Sequence record: PP359570
Direction: 5' to 3' (one strand)
Origin: Escherichia phage ALITA
Length of the DNA: 64,000 bases
Part shown: piece by piece, positions 2,931 to 55,266 of the stretch
Numbering within the stretch: the first letter of the stretch is position 1
Layout: each line of letters opens with the position of its first letter
The notes under the pieces: generated by a model
What the model was told of the DNA's origin: nothing
Databases searched by the model: none
What the model saw: only the letters and a program-made list of their open reading frames with translations
Made by a program: the position numbers and the translations under genes

Positions 2931-4337
2931 ATGCCAGCACCAAAATCATGGGAACAATATAAAGAAGAATTAACACCCCTTGCTAAAAATCACAACATTC
3001 AGATTCTGGGTTATATTGGTGAATGGAAAGGGAGCAAGACTAAACTTAAGCTATCTTGCTCTGATCATGGGGAGTGGGAAAGTACCATAATCAATAGCTT
3101 TAAAACTAAAGGCGGTAAATGTTGCCCCGATTGCAATGGTCGTAGAAAAGTAACAGAAGAAAAGGAATGTATTTCCCTTGTTGATGTTGCTAAAGAAAGA
3201 GGGTTTACTTTTATAGGTCTTGCCGAAGAGTGGCGAGGTGTGCTAACAAAAATCCGCATAGTTTGCCCTAAACATGGAGAGTGGAACACCACGACCATTA
3301 GTGGTTTTAGGAAGGGACGTGGTTGTCCGGCATGTGCAAGTAATAAGCCGTTAACATGGGAAACAGAATTACCGATCTTGGAAGAGATAGCACAGAAGAA
3401 GGGGTATCAGGTGTTAGGGTACGTGGGAGAATGGAAAGGGATTGATACAAAACTTGATTTGTTGTGTCACTGTGGTAACAGATGGGATACTACAAGTATT
3501 AACAGTTTTAAACATGATCATGGTTGTCCTTTATGTGGGTATGAGAATACAAGGAAGGCACAAACAATACCCGACGATCAACATATTGCAGATTTCTTTT
3601 CTACAGGGAAATTTAAGGAAGGCACTATCTTTACCAATACAGGGAAACGTAGTTGTAGTAAAAACAAGGACATTATCTGGATGATCGAATGTCCTGTTTG
3701 CTCTCATGATGAGTATGTGCAAGCAGGTGTATGTGATGGTAAGTTTTATATGACACGTAGCGATCTTAAGGCTGGACACTTGCCCTGCCGCTGTGCAACT
3801 AACTCTCATTATACAGAAAATCAGATTACCTACAGGGTAAAAAAGGAAGTAGAAGGGAGAGGGTATGTCTGGGTAGGTTGGATCGGTAAACCGTCTATAA
3901 GACTGGGTAATTTTAAATATCTTTGTCTTGTTCATGGGGAACAAATTGGTAGTGCTTATCGCTTACTATATCAGGATAATGGTTGTCCACAATGTGCAGG
4001 TCATAGTCAGCAGCAATTGTATGTTAATGTTGTTAAAGATAATGGTATTATAGTTGCTCTTAAGTTTGGTATATCTAAAGATAGTGCTAGGAGATTAAAC
4101 ATTCAAAATAGGCGTAATATGTTTTTTATGGAGCGTATTTGTTTATATGATTTTAGTACAGTGAAGCAGTGTAAGGCTGCTGAAAGAGCTATAAAGAAAA
4201 AATTAAAAACTGGTATCTTAACAGCAAGAGAGTTGAAAGATGGTTATACAGAAACAGTAAGTGTTTCTGATTTGGAAAATCTTCAAAAAATTATTACACA
4301 ATATGGTGGCAAATTAGTATACAGTAAGGAGGTGTAA
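2931..4337 (+). CDS. putative GIY-YIG/T5orf172-family nuclease with N-terminal Zn-ribbon repeat modules (homing-endonuclease-like)
   Basis: 4-5 repeats of ~45 aa module GEW.G..TKL.L.C..HGEW.TT.I.SF....GCP.C; C-terminal LYVNVV...KFGIS...RR...DGYTET resembles GIY / KIG.T / GYTE pattern. Confidence 0.5.
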   Translation: MPAPKSWEQYKEELTPLAKNHNIQILGYIGEWKGSKTKLKLSCSDHGEWESTIINSFKTKGGKCCPDCNGRRKVTEEKECISLVDVAKERGFTFIGLAEEWRGVLTKIRIVCPKHGEWNTTTISGFRKGRGCPACASNKPLTWETELPILEEIAQKKGYQVLGYVGEWKGIDTKLDLLCHCGNRWDTTSINSFKHDHGCPLCGYENTRKAQTIPDDQHIADFFSTGKFKEGTIFTNTGKRSCSKNKDIIWMIECPVCSHDEYVQAGVCDGKFYMTRSDLKAGHLPCRCATNSHYTENQITYRVKKEVEGRGYVWVGWIGKPSIRLGNFKYLCLVHGEQIGSAYRLLYQDNGCPQCAGHSQQQLYVNVVKDNGIIVALKFGISKDSARRLNIQNRRNMFFMERICLYDFSTVKQCKAAERAIKKKLKTGILTARELKDGYTETVSVSDLENLQKIITQYGGKLVYSKEV

Positions 4338-4889
4338 ATGCGGATTACTGATAAGTATGTGTTCTTCTTCTCGGCAAAAGATGAATTTAGCAACTGGTAT
4401 CTATCATCTTTTATTGAACCTTTAGCTCCCAAGTATAATAATTCTATTACAAGTTCTGTTGAATTTACTTGTGTGGAACAATATATGATGTGGAGAAAAG
4501 CATGTTTGTTTTATGATTACAGTATTGCATCTTCTATTTTAACCGGAGATCTAAGATATACAGGAGAAAAAGAACAAGCATATTATAAACGACTAGGCAG
4601 ATTAGTTAAAGATTATGATGAAGATACCTGGGCTTCTTTACGGGAGAAGATTGTCAAGCGTGGTTTGTATCTTAAATACACACAAAATGAAGATCTCAAA
4701 AATAAACTTATCGCTTACGCAGATAAGGAGTTCGTAGAGGCAAGCCCCTATGATTCTATTTATGGTATCAAAATGGGGATGTGGGATCGGGACGTGGAAA
4801 ATAAGGATTGTTGGAAAGGGCAAAATCTTTTAGGAAAATGGCATACAGACCTTGCTGTTTATCTAAAATCACAATCTGATATTTCCTGA
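4338..4889 (+). CDS. NADAR-domain protein (YbiA-like)
   Basis: FFFSAKDEFSNWY, CVEQYMMWRKACLF.D and EASPYDSIYGIKMG match NADAR/YbiA conserved blocks. Confidence 0.6.
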   Translation: MRITDKYVFFFSAKDEFSNWYLSSFIEPLAPKYNNSITSSVEFTCVEQYMMWRKACLFYDYSIASSILTGDLRYTGEKEQAYYKRLGRLVKDYDEDTWASLREKIVKRGLYLKYTQNEDLKNKLIAYADKEFVEASPYDSIYGIKMGMWDRDVENKDCWKGQNLLGKWHTDLAVYLKSQSDIS

Positions 4890-4916
4890 TATTTTGAAAA
4901 TTTTTATTTTTATAAA

Positions 4917-4962
4917 AAGGGGTGTGGGTTTCATGTACGGAAATCCACCCTCTGAATAATAT
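4917..4962 (+). terminator. imperfect hairpin after NADAR gene (possible terminator/processing site)
   Basis: gggtgtgggtttc...gaaatccaccc inverted repeat; no clear T-run; approx. Confidence 0.25.
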
Positions 4963-5103
4963 ATCCAGAGTAAGTAGTATTCTGTACTCTGTTAATAAAG
5001 TATTTAATTTGTTTGTTGGATTATGGTGGCTGATCTTTAAAAGGCATACTATCTCTTAACTACTACTTATAACAAAACAGTAAAATCCTTTTTATAAAAG
5101 TAC

Positions 5104-5311
5104 AAAATTATTTAAAGTTTTTACAGATTTTCGGGTACAAATTTTGAAAATGAAAAGTTCAAGTTTGGTCAAAATTATTTAAAGTTTTTGTACGTATTTC
5201 TGTCCAGATTTTGAAAATGAAAACTTCAATTTTTTAAAAATTCCCCAGTTTATTTAAAGTTTTTTTGCCTTTTTCCGTAGAAAAATCAAAAATGAAAAGT
5301 TCAATTTCGTG
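5104..5311. repeat. three imperfect ~65-70 bp tandem direct repeats
   Basis: Each unit carries ATTATTTAAAGTTTTT and (A)TTTTGAAAATGAAAA(G/C)TTCAA(G/T)TT; approx boundaries. Confidence 0.6.
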
Positions 5312-5326
5312 TTTTTATAGGTGTGT

Positions 5327-5438
5327 TAATGAGAATCATTTTCGTTTGTAAATGAGAATCATTATCATTTAACTATGTAAGTGATAATCATTCTCAGTAA
5401 GAGAATGAGAATCATTAGCAAATGAGAATTTTTCTCAT
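5327..5438. promoter_or_regulatory. cluster of five Fur-box-like AT-rich palindromic motifs
   Basis: AATGAGAATCATT(ATCATT), GTGATAATCATTCTC, AATGAGAATTTTTCTCATT; one copy differs from the Fur core ATGATAATCATTATC at one position. Confidence 0.45.
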
Positions 5439-5439
5439 T

Positions 5440-6200
5440 TACAGAATAACGCGCAGGGGCGGTGTTTGTCTCGCGCTCCCGTGTCCCCTCGCCATACAAT
5501 AAGAATAGCATAACCAATAACAAAAGCAAGCGATTATTTTTATCTTTACATTTCTTTACAAATTTATTTTAGACGAGCTACCGGCGATCAACCTTCCAAC
5601 CAGTGCCCCCTGGTATGTTAGCCCCGCCTTTACGCCGTGGGGTGGCGTTTCCTCTTCTGTATGTAAAACAGTATAAGCCCGATCCCTGGGCTTGTCAAGA
5701 TTATTTTTTGTTTTCTTGCCAGGATAGGACACCTAACCAAAAATACATGTCGCCCCGCGCCCCTGGTGGGATCTTGCTTTCCCCGCCGCCACTGCAAGCC
5801 CATAAATAACCATCAGCGAACGGATCAAAGTGATCTATCTCTTCCACCTTATGATCGCCCAGGTTGAGAACGGTTTCAACCTTTAAGCCCGTTGCGCTTG
5901 CTACCTGGTGCACCGTGCCGCCTTGCCAGCCCAGTGAGTGCATGAGATGTAAAGAAGTATTTGTCATGGTATCGCCCTTTCTTTGTTGTGCGCCCTGGTT
6001 GGCGCGGTAGAAAGATGATAGCCGTTTCCTTCATATATAGCAAGCAAAAAAGAAATGAAAAAAAGATTAAAAAATGGTTGACGTTCCTCACCTGGTAGCG
6101 TAGTATTCATCTTGTCGAGGGGGGCAAGACACAACGACAATAAACAATAGGCGGGTGCAATGCAAGACGGGCAAAGGTGAGGATCTCCACAATCCACCGT
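5440..6200. other. G+C-rich island inside otherwise AT-rich phage DNA
   Basis: Visibly GC-rich (gcgcaggggcggtg..., ccccgcgcccctggtggg...); composition unlike flanking DNA. Confidence 0.5.
5701..5967 (-). CDS. hypothetical protein (88 aa) in GC-rich island
   Basis: ORF-track ORF, only sizeable ORF in island; no recognisable motif. Confidence 0.25.
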   Translation of the reverse strand: MTNTSLHLMHSLGWQGGTVHQVASATGLKVETVLNLGDHKVEEIDHFDPFADGYLWACSGGGESKIPPGARGDMYFWLGVLSWQENKK

Positions 6201-6339
6201 CACAATAACATTACTTATAAAAGGTTGATAACGATGATCAAGAAAGAAAATAGCTTGACGGTTGGAACGATTAACGCTATCATTCTTGCCGTTCCATTTT
6301 GGATTGTAGTTGCGGTTATTATTTTCTAAAAAAATATTC

Positions 6340-6397
6340 TTGACAACGTTTTTTAATCTGATAAGATGTATCACATAGGGCGGCAATAGTGCCGCTC
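6340..6397 (+). promoter_or_regulatory. PeSL-like cassette: sigma70-type promoter + 5' stem-loop
   Basis: TTGACA-16 bp-TAAGAT then cacataGGGCGGCAatagTGCCGCtc hairpin, SD, ATG at 6420; approx. Confidence 0.6.
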
Positions 6398-6419
6398 ATA
6401 ACAGAAGAGAGAAATAATC

Positions 6420-6692
6420 ATGGCATCATATAGCGCATCAATGATTGTAAAGGGTATCACTGGTAAACCTATGCGCGGTGGCGGATCTTTCGCTAACATC
6501 AATATTGATGGACGTTTATCCCTGGACGCAGCGATCACAGTGGCACGGGAAACATTTAAAAAAGAATGTAATTTCAATAAACAAGATTATCTCGGTTTTG
6601 CTATTGAAAAAACCGCGCGCTTTGTGGATTATAAAAGCCCGAAAATGATCGACACTACACTAAAAGCGCAAGATGTAGCGTTTTTGCTTTAA
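6420..6692 (+). CDS. hypothetical early protein (90 aa)
   Basis: Immediately downstream of PeSL cassette; SD agaagagag. Confidence 0.6.
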   Translation: MASYSASMIVKGITGKPMRGGGSFANINIDGRLSLDAAITVARETFKKECNFNKQDYLGFAIEKTARFVDYKSPKMIDTTLKAQDVAFLL

Positions 6693-6695
6693 GAC

Positions 6696-6756
6696 TTGAC
6701 ACTGAAAAATAATTTGATAATATATACCACATAAGGCGGGGAAATGGTTTCCCGCC
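6696..6756 (+). promoter_or_regulatory. PeSL-like cassette
   Basis: TTGACA, AT-rich -10, GGCGGGGAAATGGTTTCCCGCC hairpin; approx. Confidence 0.6.
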
Positions 6757-6778
6757 AAATCAAAGAAAGGGTAATGCA

Positions 6779-7141
6779 ATGAGCAAGCAAATCAATACTA
6801 TCATGTTTAATCTGGTATCTTTCCGCGATGACGTGAAAAACCTTTCGCGTGATGCAGTGGATGCACGGATCGAAAGCTATCGCACACAGATCGCAACGTT
6901 ACCGCTGAAACGTGATCAACATGCCGCTAATATGATGCTTGATGCTATGATTAAAAAGATGATTCAATGTGATCTTACCCTGGCTTATGAATATGCTGGC
7001 GATCTCTTTGTAACATATAGCAAGCCCGTTCCAGGTATGAGCACCACGGAAGAATTGCATGCCTTAAATCTGCGACAAGATGCATGGGATAACATGCGCC
7101 GTGTTATGGTATGGGTAGAAAGCGGTAAAATTTACGAATAA
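6779..7141 (+). CDS. hypothetical early protein (120 aa)
   Basis: Downstream of PeSL cassette; SD aaagaaaggg. Confidence 0.6.
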   Translation: MSKQINTIMFNLVSFRDDVKNLSRDAVDARIESYRTQIATLPLKRDQHAANMMLDAMIKKMIQCDLTLAYEYAGDLFVTYSKPVPGMSTTEELHALNLRQDAWDNMRRVMVWVESGKIYE

Positions 7142-7147
7142 AAACGG

Positions 7148-7201
7148 TTGACATTGCACTAAAACCTGATAAGCTATCTTAAAGCGGGAATAGTTCCCGC
7201 T
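7148..7201 (+). promoter_or_regulatory. PeSL-like cassette
   Basis: TTGACA...gataag -10-like, aGCGGGAAtagTTCCCGCt hairpin; approx. Confidence 0.55.
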
Positions 7202-7219
7202 TACATAGGATAAAACTTT

Positions 7220-7366
7220 ATGAAACAATATGTAATGAGTATTCACACCAAAAACGGCGCTACTGTTACGACTCCGGCACGGTTTGCACTTGTAAACCGT
7301 TGCAAGAGACTAAAACGAGAGCTAAAAAACAACCGTGCAACGGGCTTTAAACGCTGGGGAGGATAA
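7220..7366 (+). CDS. small basic protein (48 aa)
   Basis: Below track cutoff; ATG 19 nt after cassette hairpin; MKQYVMSIHTKNGATV...; codon-counted. Confidence 0.4.
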   Translation: MKQYVMSIHTKNGATVTTPARFALVNRCKRLKRELKNNRATGFKRWGG

Positions 7367-7368
7367 TC

Positions 7369-7629
7369 TTGTTTTTTCTAAAAGTTTTTGATAATGTGAT
7401 CGCTTTTGAACATGCTACAACGTTCGACCTGGCGAGATACGCTATCAGGTTTAAAGATAATGTTTATCCCCGTGCTGGCGGCGGTTACACTATTTTTAAT
7501 CATCGCAACGCGCAACTAACTGATATAACTAATCCAGATCCTGGAGTGTATCGGATAGGCTGGCTACCGTCAAAAGATGCGGCAAGCATGTTTAAGGTAT
7601 GTAAACTACTAACAGAAGAGGCGAACTAA
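7369..7629 (+). CDS. hypothetical protein (86 aa), TTG start
   Basis: ORF-track ORF beginning at TTG 7 nt after GGAGGA. Confidence 0.4.
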   Translation: MFFLKVFDNVIAFEHATTFDLARYAIRFKDNVYPRAGGGYTIFNHRNAQLTDITNPDPGVYRIGWLPSKDAASMFKVCKLLTEEAN

Positions 7630-7630
7630 C

Positions 7631-8185
7631 ATGGGGCGTGAATATGTGATCCAGTCCTGGGTAAAGCATGATGCTAATGATCCGCGCATAATACCAGATG
7701 ACATGATCGATCACATGGTAGGGTATAGCGGGGAGCAGATAGGAAATCGAGCGGCAAAGAGCAACGGCAACACCAGGACGCGATCCGTTCGCCCTGGATG
7801 GCTGGCAAATGGTAACGCTGACATTGCAAGCGCCGCAGATCCAAGCGATGACGCTAAAAATAATCCCTTATACAGTATTGATCCGGCTTTTAAGGTGTTG
7901 GAAGAGTATCCCGCTAAATTAGCCGCACTAGATAAAGCATACGAAGAAAAACGGGTGGCATGGACTGTATACAACACCGCTAAAATGGTGCTAGATGCAA
8001 AATTGATTAAAGCCCAGGAGAAGATCAATAAACTTGTTACCATAGCGCAAGAGGAAGACCAGGACGACCAGGAGGAAGAGGAAGAAATCATGCCTAACCT
8101 GGAAGAGGAAGAGATCCAGCCATACACGCCGACAGAAGAGGAAAAAATACAAGCCTTAAAAAATTATAAAAATTGTATTGTGTAA
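7631..8185 (+). CDS. hypothetical protein with highly acidic C-terminus (184 aa)
   Basis: ORF-track ORF; C-terminal EEDQDDQEEEEEIMPNLEEEEIQP run. Confidence 0.5.
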   Translation: MGREYVIQSWVKHDANDPRIIPDDMIDHMVGYSGEQIGNRAAKSNGNTRTRSVRPGWLANGNADIASAADPSDDAKNNPLYSIDPAFKVLEEYPAKLAALDKAYEEKRVAWTVYNTAKMVLDAKLIKAQEKINKLVTIAQEEDQDDQEEEEEIMPNLEEEEIQPYTPTEEEKIQALKNYKNCIV

Positions 8186-8188
8186 GGC

Positions 8189-8245
8189 TTGACATATGCA
8201 AACAAGCCCCGTAATATGTACCACATAGAGCGGGGCAACCCCCTC
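8189..8245 (+). promoter_or_regulatory. PeSL-like cassette (upstream of tandem pair)
   Basis: TTGACA-17-TAATAT, cacatagaGCGGGGcaaCCCCctc hairpin; approx. Confidence 0.5.
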
Positions 8246-8265
8246 AAAGGTGAAATAAAAATCAC

Positions 8266-8293
8266 TTGACAACTGAAATCAGTAAGCTATAAT
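8266..8293 (+). promoter_or_regulatory. sigma70-type promoter without hairpin
   Basis: TTGACA-16-TATAAT consensus; approx. Confidence 0.6.
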
Positions 8294-8330
8294 GCTTATA
8301 TAAATTAAAGCGTTACTAAGGAATAAAATC

Positions 8331-8696
8331 ATGGCTAAAAATATCAATGTTTCTGCTTATGCTACCCTGGCTAACACTGCTAAAATTGAACTATCCAGCA
8401 TTGAAGCGGTACATATTAGCGCCCGTCGCTGGTTTCAAAAGTCTTATGGTAATACTTATTTCTCTTTGATGGTTGACGTTGAGATCGGCGGTAAACTGAT
8501 TGAAGTCGTTAACGTTCCGTTTCAATATGGTTATGGTGATCATTTTGATACCGTTGCCCTAGAAGAGTTTAGCAAGGTTATCAACCTGGAAGGTAAAGAC
8601 TTTTCAAATTATGCTTACCTTTCCCGTTTTTGCCGTGATAATGGGATCGCTGTATACAGTCATGCAAGCGATGTTAAACGTAAAAAAGATTTATAA
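8331..8696 (+). CDS. hypothetical early protein (121 aa)
   Basis: Downstream of tandem promoters; SD aaggaa. Confidence 0.6.
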   Translation: MAKNINVSAYATLANTAKIELSSIEAVHISARRWFQKSYGNTYFSLMVDVEIGGKLIEVVNVPFQYGYGDHFDTVALEEFSKVINLEGKDFSNYAYLSRFCRDNGIAVYSHASDVKRKKDL

Positions 8697-8702
8697 AAAG
8701 TA

Positions 8703-8762
8703 TTGACAGCACGAATAAAAAGCGTAAAATGTTTTATATCAGGACGGGGGAACGGTTTCCCC
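8703..8762 (+). promoter_or_regulatory. PeSL-like cassette
   Basis: TTGACA-16-TAAAAT, GGGGGAAcggTTTCCCC hairpin; approx. Confidence 0.6.
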
Positions 8763-8785
8763 TCCTAACAAAGAGAGAAATAAAA

Positions 8786-16648: not shown

Positions 16649-16814
16649 CCTATGCCGGACACATAGGCGGCTAATAATAACGCAACTACACACCCCACAT
16701 AATAACCATCAACGATGGTTATTATTTGTGTTTATGTAGCTTGCAACAATTGCAAGCGCAACAATATACATGGTATATTGTATTCCCTTACATTGTTGCG
16801 GTGCGTTATTATTA
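16649..16814. other. nested inverted-repeat structure (outer 12-bp stem enclosing hairpins); candidate structured ncRNA or origin element
   Basis: gcctatg-ccggaca-cataggc; aataaccatc-aac-gatggttatt; gcttgcaa-caa-ttgcaagc; outer gctaataataac ... gttattattagc; approx. Confidence 0.4.
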
Positions 16815-17117
16815 GCTAATGTTTAGAACATTGGCTATAATATAAGCTGCATATAATAAACTATGCAATAATAAACATGGTGAATAATGACACCGATGAT
16901 CATAATGCGCCACCCTCCAGGGGGCGCTATGTAAACACAAAGAAATCTTTCTTGTCAAGAAAATATTGCCACTATTGCGCAAAATTATTTTTATCTGAAT
17001 AGATGATTTTTCATACTATTGCCCCTATAACATACCTCATTTGTTGAGCCTACTTTCTTAAAAGCGCAATAAATCAGAATTATCTTGATTTTTAGGGCGT
17101 TTTATAGTACAGAAAGT

Positions 17118-17142
17118 ATGCAAATGATAATCATTATCAGCT
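17118..17142. promoter_or_regulatory. Fur-box-like motif (closest to consensus)
   Basis: cAAATGATAATCATTATCag: 16 contiguous bases identical to the Fur consensus core; approx. Confidence 0.45.
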
Positions 17143-17299
17143 ATCTTCCACGGGTAGCACTATTTCACGCCAGATCATTTCATTTGGCAAGGTGTATATA
17201 GATGTTTAGACTTGCCAAGCCATTGATTTACTTAGAATTTATCTGTTTTGTTGTGAGTAATACCTTTCTTACTCAGAAAATAATCAAAAGTCTTATAAG

Positions 17300-17341
17300 T
17301 CATTGAATGATAATACAAATGATAATTATTCTCATTGATAT
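17300..17341. promoter_or_regulatory. Fur-box-like motif pair
   Basis: gAATGATAATacAAATGATAATTATTCTCATTgata; approx. Confidence 0.35.
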
Positions 17342-17695
17342 TTGAGGGGGACGGTCGGCAGAAATCGGGGGGCGCTGAAAATCGCGTTAAGCACCTCTCG
17401 CAAGCGAGCAGTATTTTGCGGCAAGTTATTGATATTATTGACTTTACGCTTATGAAAAGGGGGTGTGTCGAAATAAATCGGGTATACCGGAAAATTTTTG
17501 TGGCATAGATATTTATTTGTCTATATTATGTACAAAGGGGTGTATTAAAAATAATAGGTATATATAGAATAATTGATAGGGAAATCCTATACTAATCCCT
17601 CCATTAATGATGTTTCTATGTTGCTGTTATTGTAATAGATGAAAAGACGCTGTATGATGTGTGGCATGAAACGTAAACTTATAAAGGAGTCTGAT

Positions 17696-55053: not shown

Positions 55054-55266
55054 CTATTCATCATCTGAACTCTCTGTTGAGAATGTTCGTGTGTAGGGAC
55101 ACTGACGACTTGCAGAAACCTCTATAACCTTGTCGTACATACCGTTAGAGTAAAAACAGTATTTTGTACTTCCATAAACTTGTTCTCCAGAATTAATTAA
55201 AGTTATTTGACCAGCATAAGAATAAGAACTGATTACTAAAAGTAAACCGACAAGAAGTTTTTTCAT
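55054..55266 (-). CDS. small secreted protein with signal peptide (70 aa)
   Basis: MKKLLVGLLLVISSYSYAGQ signal-peptide-like N-terminus; two Cys. Confidence 0.45.
   Translation of the reverse strand: MKKLLVGLLLVISSYSYAGQITLINSGEQVYGSTKYCFYSNGMYDKVIEVSASRQCPYTRTFSTESSDDE

Follow-up and report, generated by a model that had tools for sequence, protein, structure and literature searches.

What does an array of three long direct repeats do in a gene-poor stretch of the genome of Escherichia phage ALITA (PP359570)? The window analyzed, a stretch of 64,000 nucleotides from this record, derives from a phi92-like phage (Stephanstirmvirinae, Justusliebigvirus), and the segment holding the array and the adjoining Fur-box-like sites (5060–5460) is most closely matched, at 99.5% identity, by vB_vPM_PD114. 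The original prediction, made from the letters of the DNA, had placed three ~68-bp tandem repeats at 5104–5311 and had offered a replication origin, a packaging signal, or stacked binding sites for a regulator as their function. The repeat array is real and goes well beyond chance for AT-rich sequence. With a probability of roughly 35%, we read it as a set of sites bound by a phage-encoded protein, and most likely as the module that gives a replication origin its specificity.

The phi92-like and rV5-like phages are broad-host-range therapeutic candidates and are represented in the BASEL reference collection; their replication origin has not yet been located. The paper on rV5 reports only transcription-linked skew shifts, draws an unexplained “non-coding” box, and locates no origin (PMC3606486). 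In the literature, no paper was found that describes or tests the array, and no description was found of early control circuits in either group of phages. The array appears only as machine annotation in a few records, with the GenBank records alia, inny, and muut already displaying it as an unexplained “repeat_region”. An array of ~200 bp with a swappable box could serve as a handle for finding its binder, mapping the start of replication, and testing host-iron input via Fur. For genome engineering, it represents a cis-element that should probably not be disturbed, or that might be swapped to change specificity.

Structure of the Repeat Array

Positions 5103–5311 comprise three head-to-tail units of 67, 75, and 67 bp. 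The predicted number and place of the units were therefore right, and the uniform length of 68 bp was not. The units are as follows.

5103–5169, repeat unit 1 (67 bp): block A ATTATTTAAAGTTTTT at 5107–5122, a variable 19-nt spacer, and block B TTTTGAAAATGAAAAGTTCAA at 5142–5162
5170–5244, repeat unit 2 (75 bp): block A at 5174–5189, block B TTTTGAAAATGAAAACTTCAA at 5209–5229, and the A/T palindrome TTTTTTAAAAATT at 5230–5242
5245–5311, repeat unit 3 (67 bp): block A TTTATTTAAAGTTTTT at 5249–5264 and block B AATCAAAAATGAAAAGTTCAA at 5284–5304

Each unit displays (A/T)TTATTTAAAGTTTTT near its start (at 5107, 5174, and 5249), followed by a variable spacer of ~19 nt and then by a 21-bp block. Compared with the unit 1 form of this second block, the copy in unit 2 differs at one position and that in unit 3 at four, the latter by direct reading. 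The shared blocks with small differences that had been predicted are thus present as two blocks per unit, with up to four mismatches relative to unit 1. The 8 extra base pairs of unit 2 correspond to the palindrome, which is conserved.

Tandem Repeats Finder, proposed in the original prediction as a check, retrieved the first two units (5103–5233, period 67, 2.0 copies, 83% matches, score 183). A repeat search recovered three in-register copies starting at 5089, 5156, and 5231, with spacings of 67 and 75 and 71% ungapped identity to the reference copy. In gapped alignments, 56 positions are identical between units 1 and 2, 49 between units 1 and 3, and 48 between units 2 and 3. When the array is shifted against itself by 67 and 75, the match reaches 0.54, compared with a best-offset mean of 0.418 (standard deviation 0.02, maximum 0.491) among 1000 dinucleotide-preserving shuffles, corresponding to a z of ~6. 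In ALITA, only one stretch of the window is more AT-rich than the array, which lies in a region of 23% GC. Similarity arising from mere low-complexity AT-rich sequence, which the original prediction had itself raised, is contradicted by this excess over shuffles and by conservation in two phage subfamilies.

The blocks are also nearly unique in the window. Block A (ATTATTTAAAGTTTTT) is found at 5107, 5174, and 5249, the third site with one mismatch, against a chance expectation of 0.5 in 64 kb; the sole further match is a weak one at 55192 with two mismatches. Block B (TTTTGAAAATGAAAAGTTCAA) is found at 5142 and 5209 against a chance expectation of 0.03, and nowhere in the window outside the array. 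Lytic phage factors with a single genomic target are typically origin binders, small terminases, or autoregulators. Blocks this close to unique would fit a one-site factor such as an origin binder rather than a general promoter motif.

Conservation and Box Exchange in Related Phages

The homologous region was compared in 25 genomes or contigs. The Stephanstirmvirinae were represented by phi92, alia, PD06, phAPEC8, ETEC-TG, Citrobacter Tr1, Klebsiella phi1_175008, KP13-26, and FKP3, and the Vequintavirinae by 4MG, GAP31, GEC_vB_MG, KB57, CR3, P7_Pc, Av-05, Hena1, and SNUABM_01; A73 and phiTE were also included. Among close relatives, 55 phi92-like records cover at least 80% of a query made of the array and the Fur boxes. 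The full-length matches among those listed span 400–402 nt relative to the 401-nt query, and therefore no unit has been gained or lost. Conservation of copy number, which the original prediction had named as worth examining, is borne out: it does not vary in about 50 close relatives, and three units are present in two subfamilies.

Within the Stephanstirmvirinae, overall identity falls to ~65%, with TTATTTAAA in units 1 and 3, the A-rich second block, and the palindrome-aligned block between units 2 and 3 all kept while the spacers drift. The core of block A, TTATTTAAA, is invariant in 11 genomes of this subfamily; in Phapecoctavirus, unit 2 is degenerate in its block A. The Vequintavirinae possess three units at the same position, spaced 63–78 bp from start to start (Seunavirus, Certrevirus, Mydovirus, Henunavirus, and Av-05). 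Unit length in relatives overall is 63–90 bp. Exceptions are A73, with four to five copies of its box at 32–64 bp, and phiTE, which also carries extra copies.

What changes between lineages is the opening box of 10–13 bp, which is swapped between TTATTTAAAG, TCTCGATCGA, and ACTTGAGRGG and is usually followed by a T-run (T5C). The opening box reads (G)GTTCTCGATCGA in Seunavirus, Certrevirus, Mydovirus, and Av-05, and GGGACTTGAGRGG in Henunavirus and A73. Units of the Vequintavirinae display this box, in most cases T5C, and then an A-rich block homologous to block B of ALITA. Box type tracks the lineage of the phage and not its host, and phages of E. coli show all three types. A mosaic is provided by Av-05, which combines a Stephanstirmvirinae-like core (a conserved segment to the right of the array, described below) and gp224 gene (88.7% nucleotide and 68% amino-acid identity) with a box of the Vequintavirinae type; array specificity therefore goes with the phage backbone, and the core is exchangeable. 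An array that travels with the backbone would fit a binder encoded elsewhere in the phage, and an exchangeable core would fit reading by host machinery.

The GC content of the array ranges from 18% to 49% between lineages, the upper value being that of CR3. Judged from these comparisons, the conserved property is the repeat architecture and not AT-richness. A host or plasmid source of the array sequence was considered and rejected, with no match to it among the chromosomes of 5,426 E. coli genomes and 72,556 plasmids. An IMG/VR scan for TTATTTAAA-N50-75-TTATTTAAA was uninformative, with only unrelated AT-rich contigs among the matches listed.

Several records labeled as Campylobacter phages also match this locus. 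C3, A110a, and A150, from the set MG065656, MG065689, MG065639, and MG065650, are 84.6–97.8% identical over the matched hub segments; the “Campylobacter jejuni phage” records with such matches are MG065656, MG065689, and MG065639. In the same set, “Campylobacter phage” B15 matches only 85 nt of the Fur boxes, at 78.8%. The Campylobacter host label, or the samples, of the C3, A110a, A150, and B15 records look doubtful.

Organization of the Surrounding Hub

The array lies within a gene-poor stretch of ~1.3 kb (4890–6230), in agreement with the large non-coding region that had been predicted, with a NADAR gene to its left and a run of small rightward open reading frames (ORFs) to its right. In 25 loci of the Stephanstirmvirinae and Vequintavirinae, the same order is kept: three units, one to five Fur boxes, a highly conserved structured core under a near-consensus leftward sigma-70 promoter, and, legible in seven lineages, a rightward early promoter. 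We refer to this arrangement as the hub. The components that accompany the array in ALITA are as follows.

4876–4953, plus strand: left border of the hub, with two TGATATTT copies right after the NADAR stop and then a stable hairpin (4918–4953)
5324–5443: Fur-box-like cluster, four strong sites and one weaker, directly right of the array
5543–5662, minus strand: strongly conserved, GC-rich core that may act as a structured RNA or as single-stranded DNA; direct repeats CTTTACA-N3-CTTTACA at 5544–5560
5670–5698, minus strand: leftward promoter P(−), TTGACA, 17 bp, TATACT (11/12), with an A/T-rich upstream stretch, pointing over the core to the Fur boxes and array
5701–5967, minus strand: gp224 ORF (phi92 gp224), 88 aa, N-terminus helix-turn-helix-like by eye, an optional part of the hub
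6078–6106, plus strand: rightward early promoter, TTGACG, 17 bp, TAGTAT, ahead of small rightward ORFs without known function (6420 onward)

Long composite units, three copies kept, a box swapped between lineages, and a fixed tie to Fur boxes and a structured core are the features that make the array unusual. The array alone would be of moderate interest, and the whole hub of more.

The core belongs to a GC-rich segment (5440–5700), in which a GC hairpin (5440–5490) lies between the core and the Fur boxes and array. Across genera, the core stretch retains 77–89% nucleotide identity, and 236 records, from phages of the Stephanstirmvirinae and Vequintavirinae, match a 270-bp query containing it. 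An alignment of 17 sequences revealed covariation in one helix, with double changes at four pairs (for example, A-U in nine and G-C in eight sequences). Overall, 83.8% of cells are paired, compared with 25–42% when the partners are slid, and the covariation score was reached by none of 500 shuffles. A possible pseudoknot alternates between CCCC:GGGG and CCAA:UUGG among the sequences. Thermodynamic stability of the core is ordinary, and its transcribed strand is G-rich. A comparison with Rfam found no family for the core, returning only sub-threshold chance matches of the microRNA type over the Fur boxes. In Pectobacterium phage P7_Pc (1700–2060 of its locus, L035), the core occurs as a tandem duplicate in CCAA/TTGG and CCCC/GGGG variants, each with its own hairpin and TTGACA or TTGACG.

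The leftward promoter is kept in all 16 lineages compared, with TTGACA, TTGACG, or TTGCAA, a spacer of 17–18 bp, a −10 element such as TATACT, CATAAT, or TATAAT, and an A/T-rich upstream stretch. Because of this conservation, host RNA polymerase very probably transcribes leftward from P(−) across the core toward the Fur boxes and array. P(−) is present even in CR3, which is without gp224.

The product of gp224 displays a conserved N-terminus, LHLMHSLGWQGGTVHQVASATGLKVETVLNL, and a variable C-terminus, and it matched no Pfam family. The gene is missing from CR3 and P7_Pc, and a leftward ORF (DUF7170) at its position in Seunavirus and Mydovirus is not homologous to it. As a candidate binder of the array, gp224 was rejected, given that its N-terminus is nearly identical in phages of all three box types and that Certrevirus lacks the gene.

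At the left border, the hairpin at 4918–4953 reaches −20.9 kcal/mol (z −3.7) on the plus strand and −11.8 kcal/mol (z −1.6) on the minus strand. It belongs to the upstream operon and is without a U-tract. A leftward terminator at this border, which would make the hub one leftward transcript of ~760 nt, was considered and dropped given that this hairpin is a plus-strand structure. In most lineages compared, two to three direct copies of TGATATTTG stand right after the stop of the gene left of the hub (4876–4894 in the window, with a further occurrence at 17337–17345; loci L028, L031, and L036–L039). The Vequintavirinae display TATCTCAAA about three times between the TGATATTTG copies and the array. 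At the opposite end of the hub, the early promoter is legible at the same site in seven lineages (phAPEC8, Tr1, phi1_175008, CR3, P7_Pc, SNUABM_01, and Hena1).

A Candidate Origin-Type Docking Array

In the reading that we tentatively prefer, each unit would be a composite docking site made of the lineage-specific box of 10–13 bp, usually T5C, and the second A-rich block. The partner would be one phage-encoded, sequence-specific DNA-binding protein, and the array would act as the specificity module of a ~1-kb non-coding hub common to phi92-like and rV5-like phages. The hub itself may work as an early origin of replication like those of T4 that pair a promoter with a downstream element. Transcription by host RNA polymerase would start at P(−) and cross the G-rich structured core toward the Fur boxes and array, where the bound phage protein would mark or open the site so that the replisome can load. 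Fur sitting between the promoter and the array could make the process dependent on iron status. Binding by a protein, the identity of that protein, the link to replication, and the role of Fur are all steps that we infer.

Established iteron origins (lambda ori, R6K gamma, pSC101, P4 ori/crr, and the PLE RepA repeats) resemble the array in having same-orientation direct repeats at a single locus and recognition blocks that change between relatives, as is expected from co-evolution with a cognate protein. In ALITA, three same-orientation units stand at one locus, with blocks essentially confined to the array in 64 kb. Of the four repeat types in the non-coding region of PLE, RepA binds a single one (bioRxiv 10.1101/639039); the ALITA array is likewise embedded among other repeat classes. 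A second parallel is provided by T4, in which oriF and oriG consist of a promoter and a downstream unwinding element and are primed by an R-loop, whereas oriE needs an early sigma-70 promoter and carries 12-nt direct-repeat iterons whose role is still undefined (PMC3016281). T4 is likewise a lytic myovirus with a permuted genome, in which a host-type promoter reads into a repeat-bearing, easily melted non-coding stretch beside small ORFs without known function. The two differ in that no sequence similarity is shared and that, in ALITA, 220 nt of conserved structured GC-rich sequence and the Fur cluster intervene between promoter and repeats.

Several observations weigh against an origin. The units are composites of 67–90 bp (67, 75, and 67 bp in ALITA), compared with ~17–22 bp for typical iterons, and they show no consistent 10–11-bp periodicity and hence no helical phasing. 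Neither a Rep, O, or alpha-like gene adjoins the array, nor was a Rep, O, or DnaA-like protein found within 5 kb on either side or among 40 window ORFs checked. The AAA ATPase encoded at 1729–2856 was rejected as an initiator, as it displays only generic similarity to classical AAA+ proteins of the p97/Cdc48 type and not to DnaA, Orc, or DnaC. No DnaA site (at least 8/9) or IHF consensus is conserved in the hub of 14 lineages. A universal unwinding element or curvature was not found either, given inconsistent A-tract phasing and the 49% GC of the CR3 array. GC skew, as an origin marker, follows gene orientation only. The array also lies 350–560 bp from P(−), beyond the GC-rich hairpin, and this hairpin (5440–5490) may terminate the P(−) transcript before the array. 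In T5, a comparable region of repeats and Fur boxes is not where origins were mapped (Davison, bioRxiv 10.1101/866236). The label “iteron-like” in the original prediction accordingly captures the logic of the array, direct repeats at one locus, and not its geometry or equipment, as the units are long composites and neither an initiator gene nor a DnaA box was found.

Two related candidates were also set aside. The idea that what is conserved is intrinsic DNA curvature, or the capacity to serve as an unwinding element, was rejected for want of consistent phasing and given an array GC content of 0.18–0.49 between lineages. A ~275-aa protein encoded upstream in the Vequintavirinae was rejected as a Rep-like partner, as it gave no Pfam or PDB signal and has no homologue in the ALITA window.

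The T5 “Repeat Region 3”, a proposed injection stop, is a further system of similar appearance. It is a long untranslated, repeat-rich region conserved better than its flanking genes, with direct repeats of ~66 bp (DRE), DRD repeats, and DnaA boxes (bioRxiv 10.1101/866236), and in the T5-like phage 3sent1 the region holds ~8 Fur-box-like sites followed by a GC hairpin. T5 differs in its fixed ends, two-step injection, and a position of the region at the terminal-repeat border with paired DnaA boxes, whereas the phi92 and rV5 groups are permuted and without DnaA boxes. Only the Fur boxes align by BLAST with T5-like phages. An injection stop in the style of T5 is unlikely, given that the relatives of ALITA are circularly permuted.

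Other known classes of repeat fit poorly. Tandem sigma-70 promoters were rejected: no site of at least 9/12 was found on either strand in 4900–5500, where the best manual fit reached 7/12, and the unit motifs are not repeated elsewhere in 64 kb. Sigma-28 promoters were also rejected, as TAAAGTTT of block A resembles a −35 element but is followed by no GCCGATAA-like −10 element in any unit or relative. A CRISPR array would not have two different blocks per unit or “spacers” homologous between related phages, as are found here, and no cas genes turned up among the 40 window ORFs checked.

Alternative Readings

The principal alternative, possible and yet rather unlikely in our estimate, is an operator or architectural array, in which a phage regulator bound to the three units controls adjoining promoters (a rightward promoter overlapped by a Fur box, P(−), and perhaps the early promoter) and shuts off or boosts early transcription. 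The Vequintavirinae have a conserved rightward arrangement, TTGAAT, 18 bp, CAGAAT, that overlaps with their last Fur box and lies directly downstream of the array; the hub, in addition, adjoins the promoter of the early operon. The second non-coding region of the window, at 16.15–17.33 kb, reuses Fur boxes and TGATATTT beside promoter-like sites, suggesting a regulatory vocabulary, and box swapping is compatible with any specific DNA-binding protein. Distances and promoter quality are less favorable to such control. The −35 element of the Fur-overlapped promoter is degenerate in ALITA and phAPEC8, and the array lies at least 110 bp from that promoter, ~350–560 bp from P(−), and ~770–970 bp from the early promoter. 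Furthermore, a regulator that has only one target, as judged here over at least 43% of the genome, is usually an autoregulator, whereas the adjacent gp224 does not track box type and is absent in Certrevirus. An origin and a regulator array are not separable from sequence alone. Were the array only a regulator site, it would still define a new cis-element, conserved in two phage subfamilies and showing a documented switch of specificity.

An element acting at the RNA level, in which the units, as part of a transcript, would for example soak up a nuclease or other RNA-binding protein or mimic an antitoxin, is quite improbable. The precedent is phiTE, an rV5-like phage in which tandem repeats (pseudo-ToxI) act as an RNA antitoxin mimic (PMC3475682), and read-through from P(−) or from the upstream operon could transcribe the array. 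ToxI and pseudo-ToxI resemble the array in being tandem and non-coding and in occurring in this broad group of phages, but they occupy another locus (pseudo-ToxI lies at 106.7 kb in phiTE and the phiTE hub at ~39.7 kb), have 36-nt units where those of ALITA are 67–75 nt and those of relatives reach 90 nt, form an RNA pseudoknot, and vary in copy number through slippage, unlike an array fixed at three. Units acting as structured RNA were rejected, as the predicted folding of either strand was no better than that of shuffles (z 0.28 and −0.20), and no promoter-like site was found in, beside, or ahead of the array.

A packaging site, at which the three units would bind the small terminase to start a headful series, is disfavored and very improbable. 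The lambda cosB site and the P1 and SPP1 pac sites likewise place several direct repeats at a unique site, and in lambda cosB/pac these repeats, at least three in number, bind protein. Moreover, the GenBank records of three phages open within ~90 bp of the array. That of ETEC-TG starts 50 nt before unit 1, that of phi1_175008 86 nt before it, and that of RUS_R7 immediately past the array. These starts differ, and poor coverage of AT-rich DNA may account for them. Neither a terminase nor a head gene was found near the array or among the window ORFs checked; the array stands among ORFs without known function, ~23 kb from a block of replication genes at 28.6–64 kb. Relatives package without a detectable preferred end: in CB7 (Certrevirus), described as “like T4”, read depth is even and no ends are sensitive to BAL-31 (PMC7344957), whereas the genome of phiTE is circularly permuted with terminal redundancy and that of PVP-SE1 is likewise circularly permuted (PMC3475682). 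Among the functions originally offered, the shared premise of a cis-acting array that is not low-complexity sequence has stood, with copy number, position, and blocks conserved and the box swapped, and packaging has lost ground given permuted relatives and no terminase gene found among the window ORFs checked.

The absence of any function, as a recent duplication or AT-rich filler, is hardly tenable, since a GC content of 23% and the chance recurrence of short AT-rich motifs in other AT-rich viruses (IMG/VR two-block scan) are outweighed by an autocorrelation 6 standard deviations above dinucleotide-preserving shuffles, by three units with conserved blocks and drifting spacers over two subfamilies (at 49% GC in CR3), and by a constant copy number in about 50 close relatives.

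Fur-Box-Like Sites and Host Iron

Directly beside the array, the Fur-like cluster that had been predicted is present as four sites (5325, 5348, 5377, and 5401), each matching 15–16 of the 19 positions of GATAATGATAATCATTATC, with a fifth, weaker box at ~5421 by eye. Relatives display from one to four or five boxes at the same relative place, and none are found only in locus L013. Further Fur-box-like sites in the window, some of them intergenic, lie at 16187, 16245, 17120 (17/19), 17305–17335, 29594, and 40786.

A leftward gene block at 28.6–64 kb encodes nucleotide-metabolism and replication enzymes, including the class Ia NrdAB reductase. The phage carries many Fur-like boxes, and its class Ia NrdAB is iron dependent; iron-dependent control or titration of Fur is conceivable. 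The hub as a whole would then be an iron-gated switch, combining three lineage-specific docking sites, Fur boxes, and a new structured RNA made from a consensus sigma-70 promoter, a proposal that we consider unlikely. Under it, transcription or unwinding would extend as far as the array or not depending on how far the Fur boxes are occupied, so that origin firing or early-gene control would be coupled to the iron status of the host, and the many Fur boxes on replicating genomes could titrate Fur.

In the T5-like Salmonella phage 3sent1 (1300–1620 of its locus, L032), the ~8 Fur-box-like sites of the untranslated “Repeat Region 3” (AAATGAGAATCATT and others) stand beside DnaA boxes. Fur is not mentioned for the T5 Repeat Region 3 in the preprint by Davison (bioRxiv 10.1101/866236).

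Other Features of the Window

A second long non-coding region, at 16150–17330, is the most AT-rich of the window (21% GC). It contains Fur-like boxes, about ten TATCTNA motifs, 3.4 copies of the 16-nt tandem repeat AATAATCATTTCATAC, GCAAGCG motifs, and one TGATATTTG copy, a motif vocabulary like that of the hub at 5 kb. The small rightward ORFs at 6000–16000 are compositionally distinct, with a lower GC skew (0.04–0.13) and a higher AT skew (0.10–0.18) than the flanking rightward genes. Between the AAA ATPase and NADAR genes, 2931–4337 encodes an endonuclease of 468 aa that carries four CapR-homology repeats and weakly matches T5orf172; the gene ranges from 1173 to 1407 nt in length among close relatives, as expected of a mobile gene of the homing type.

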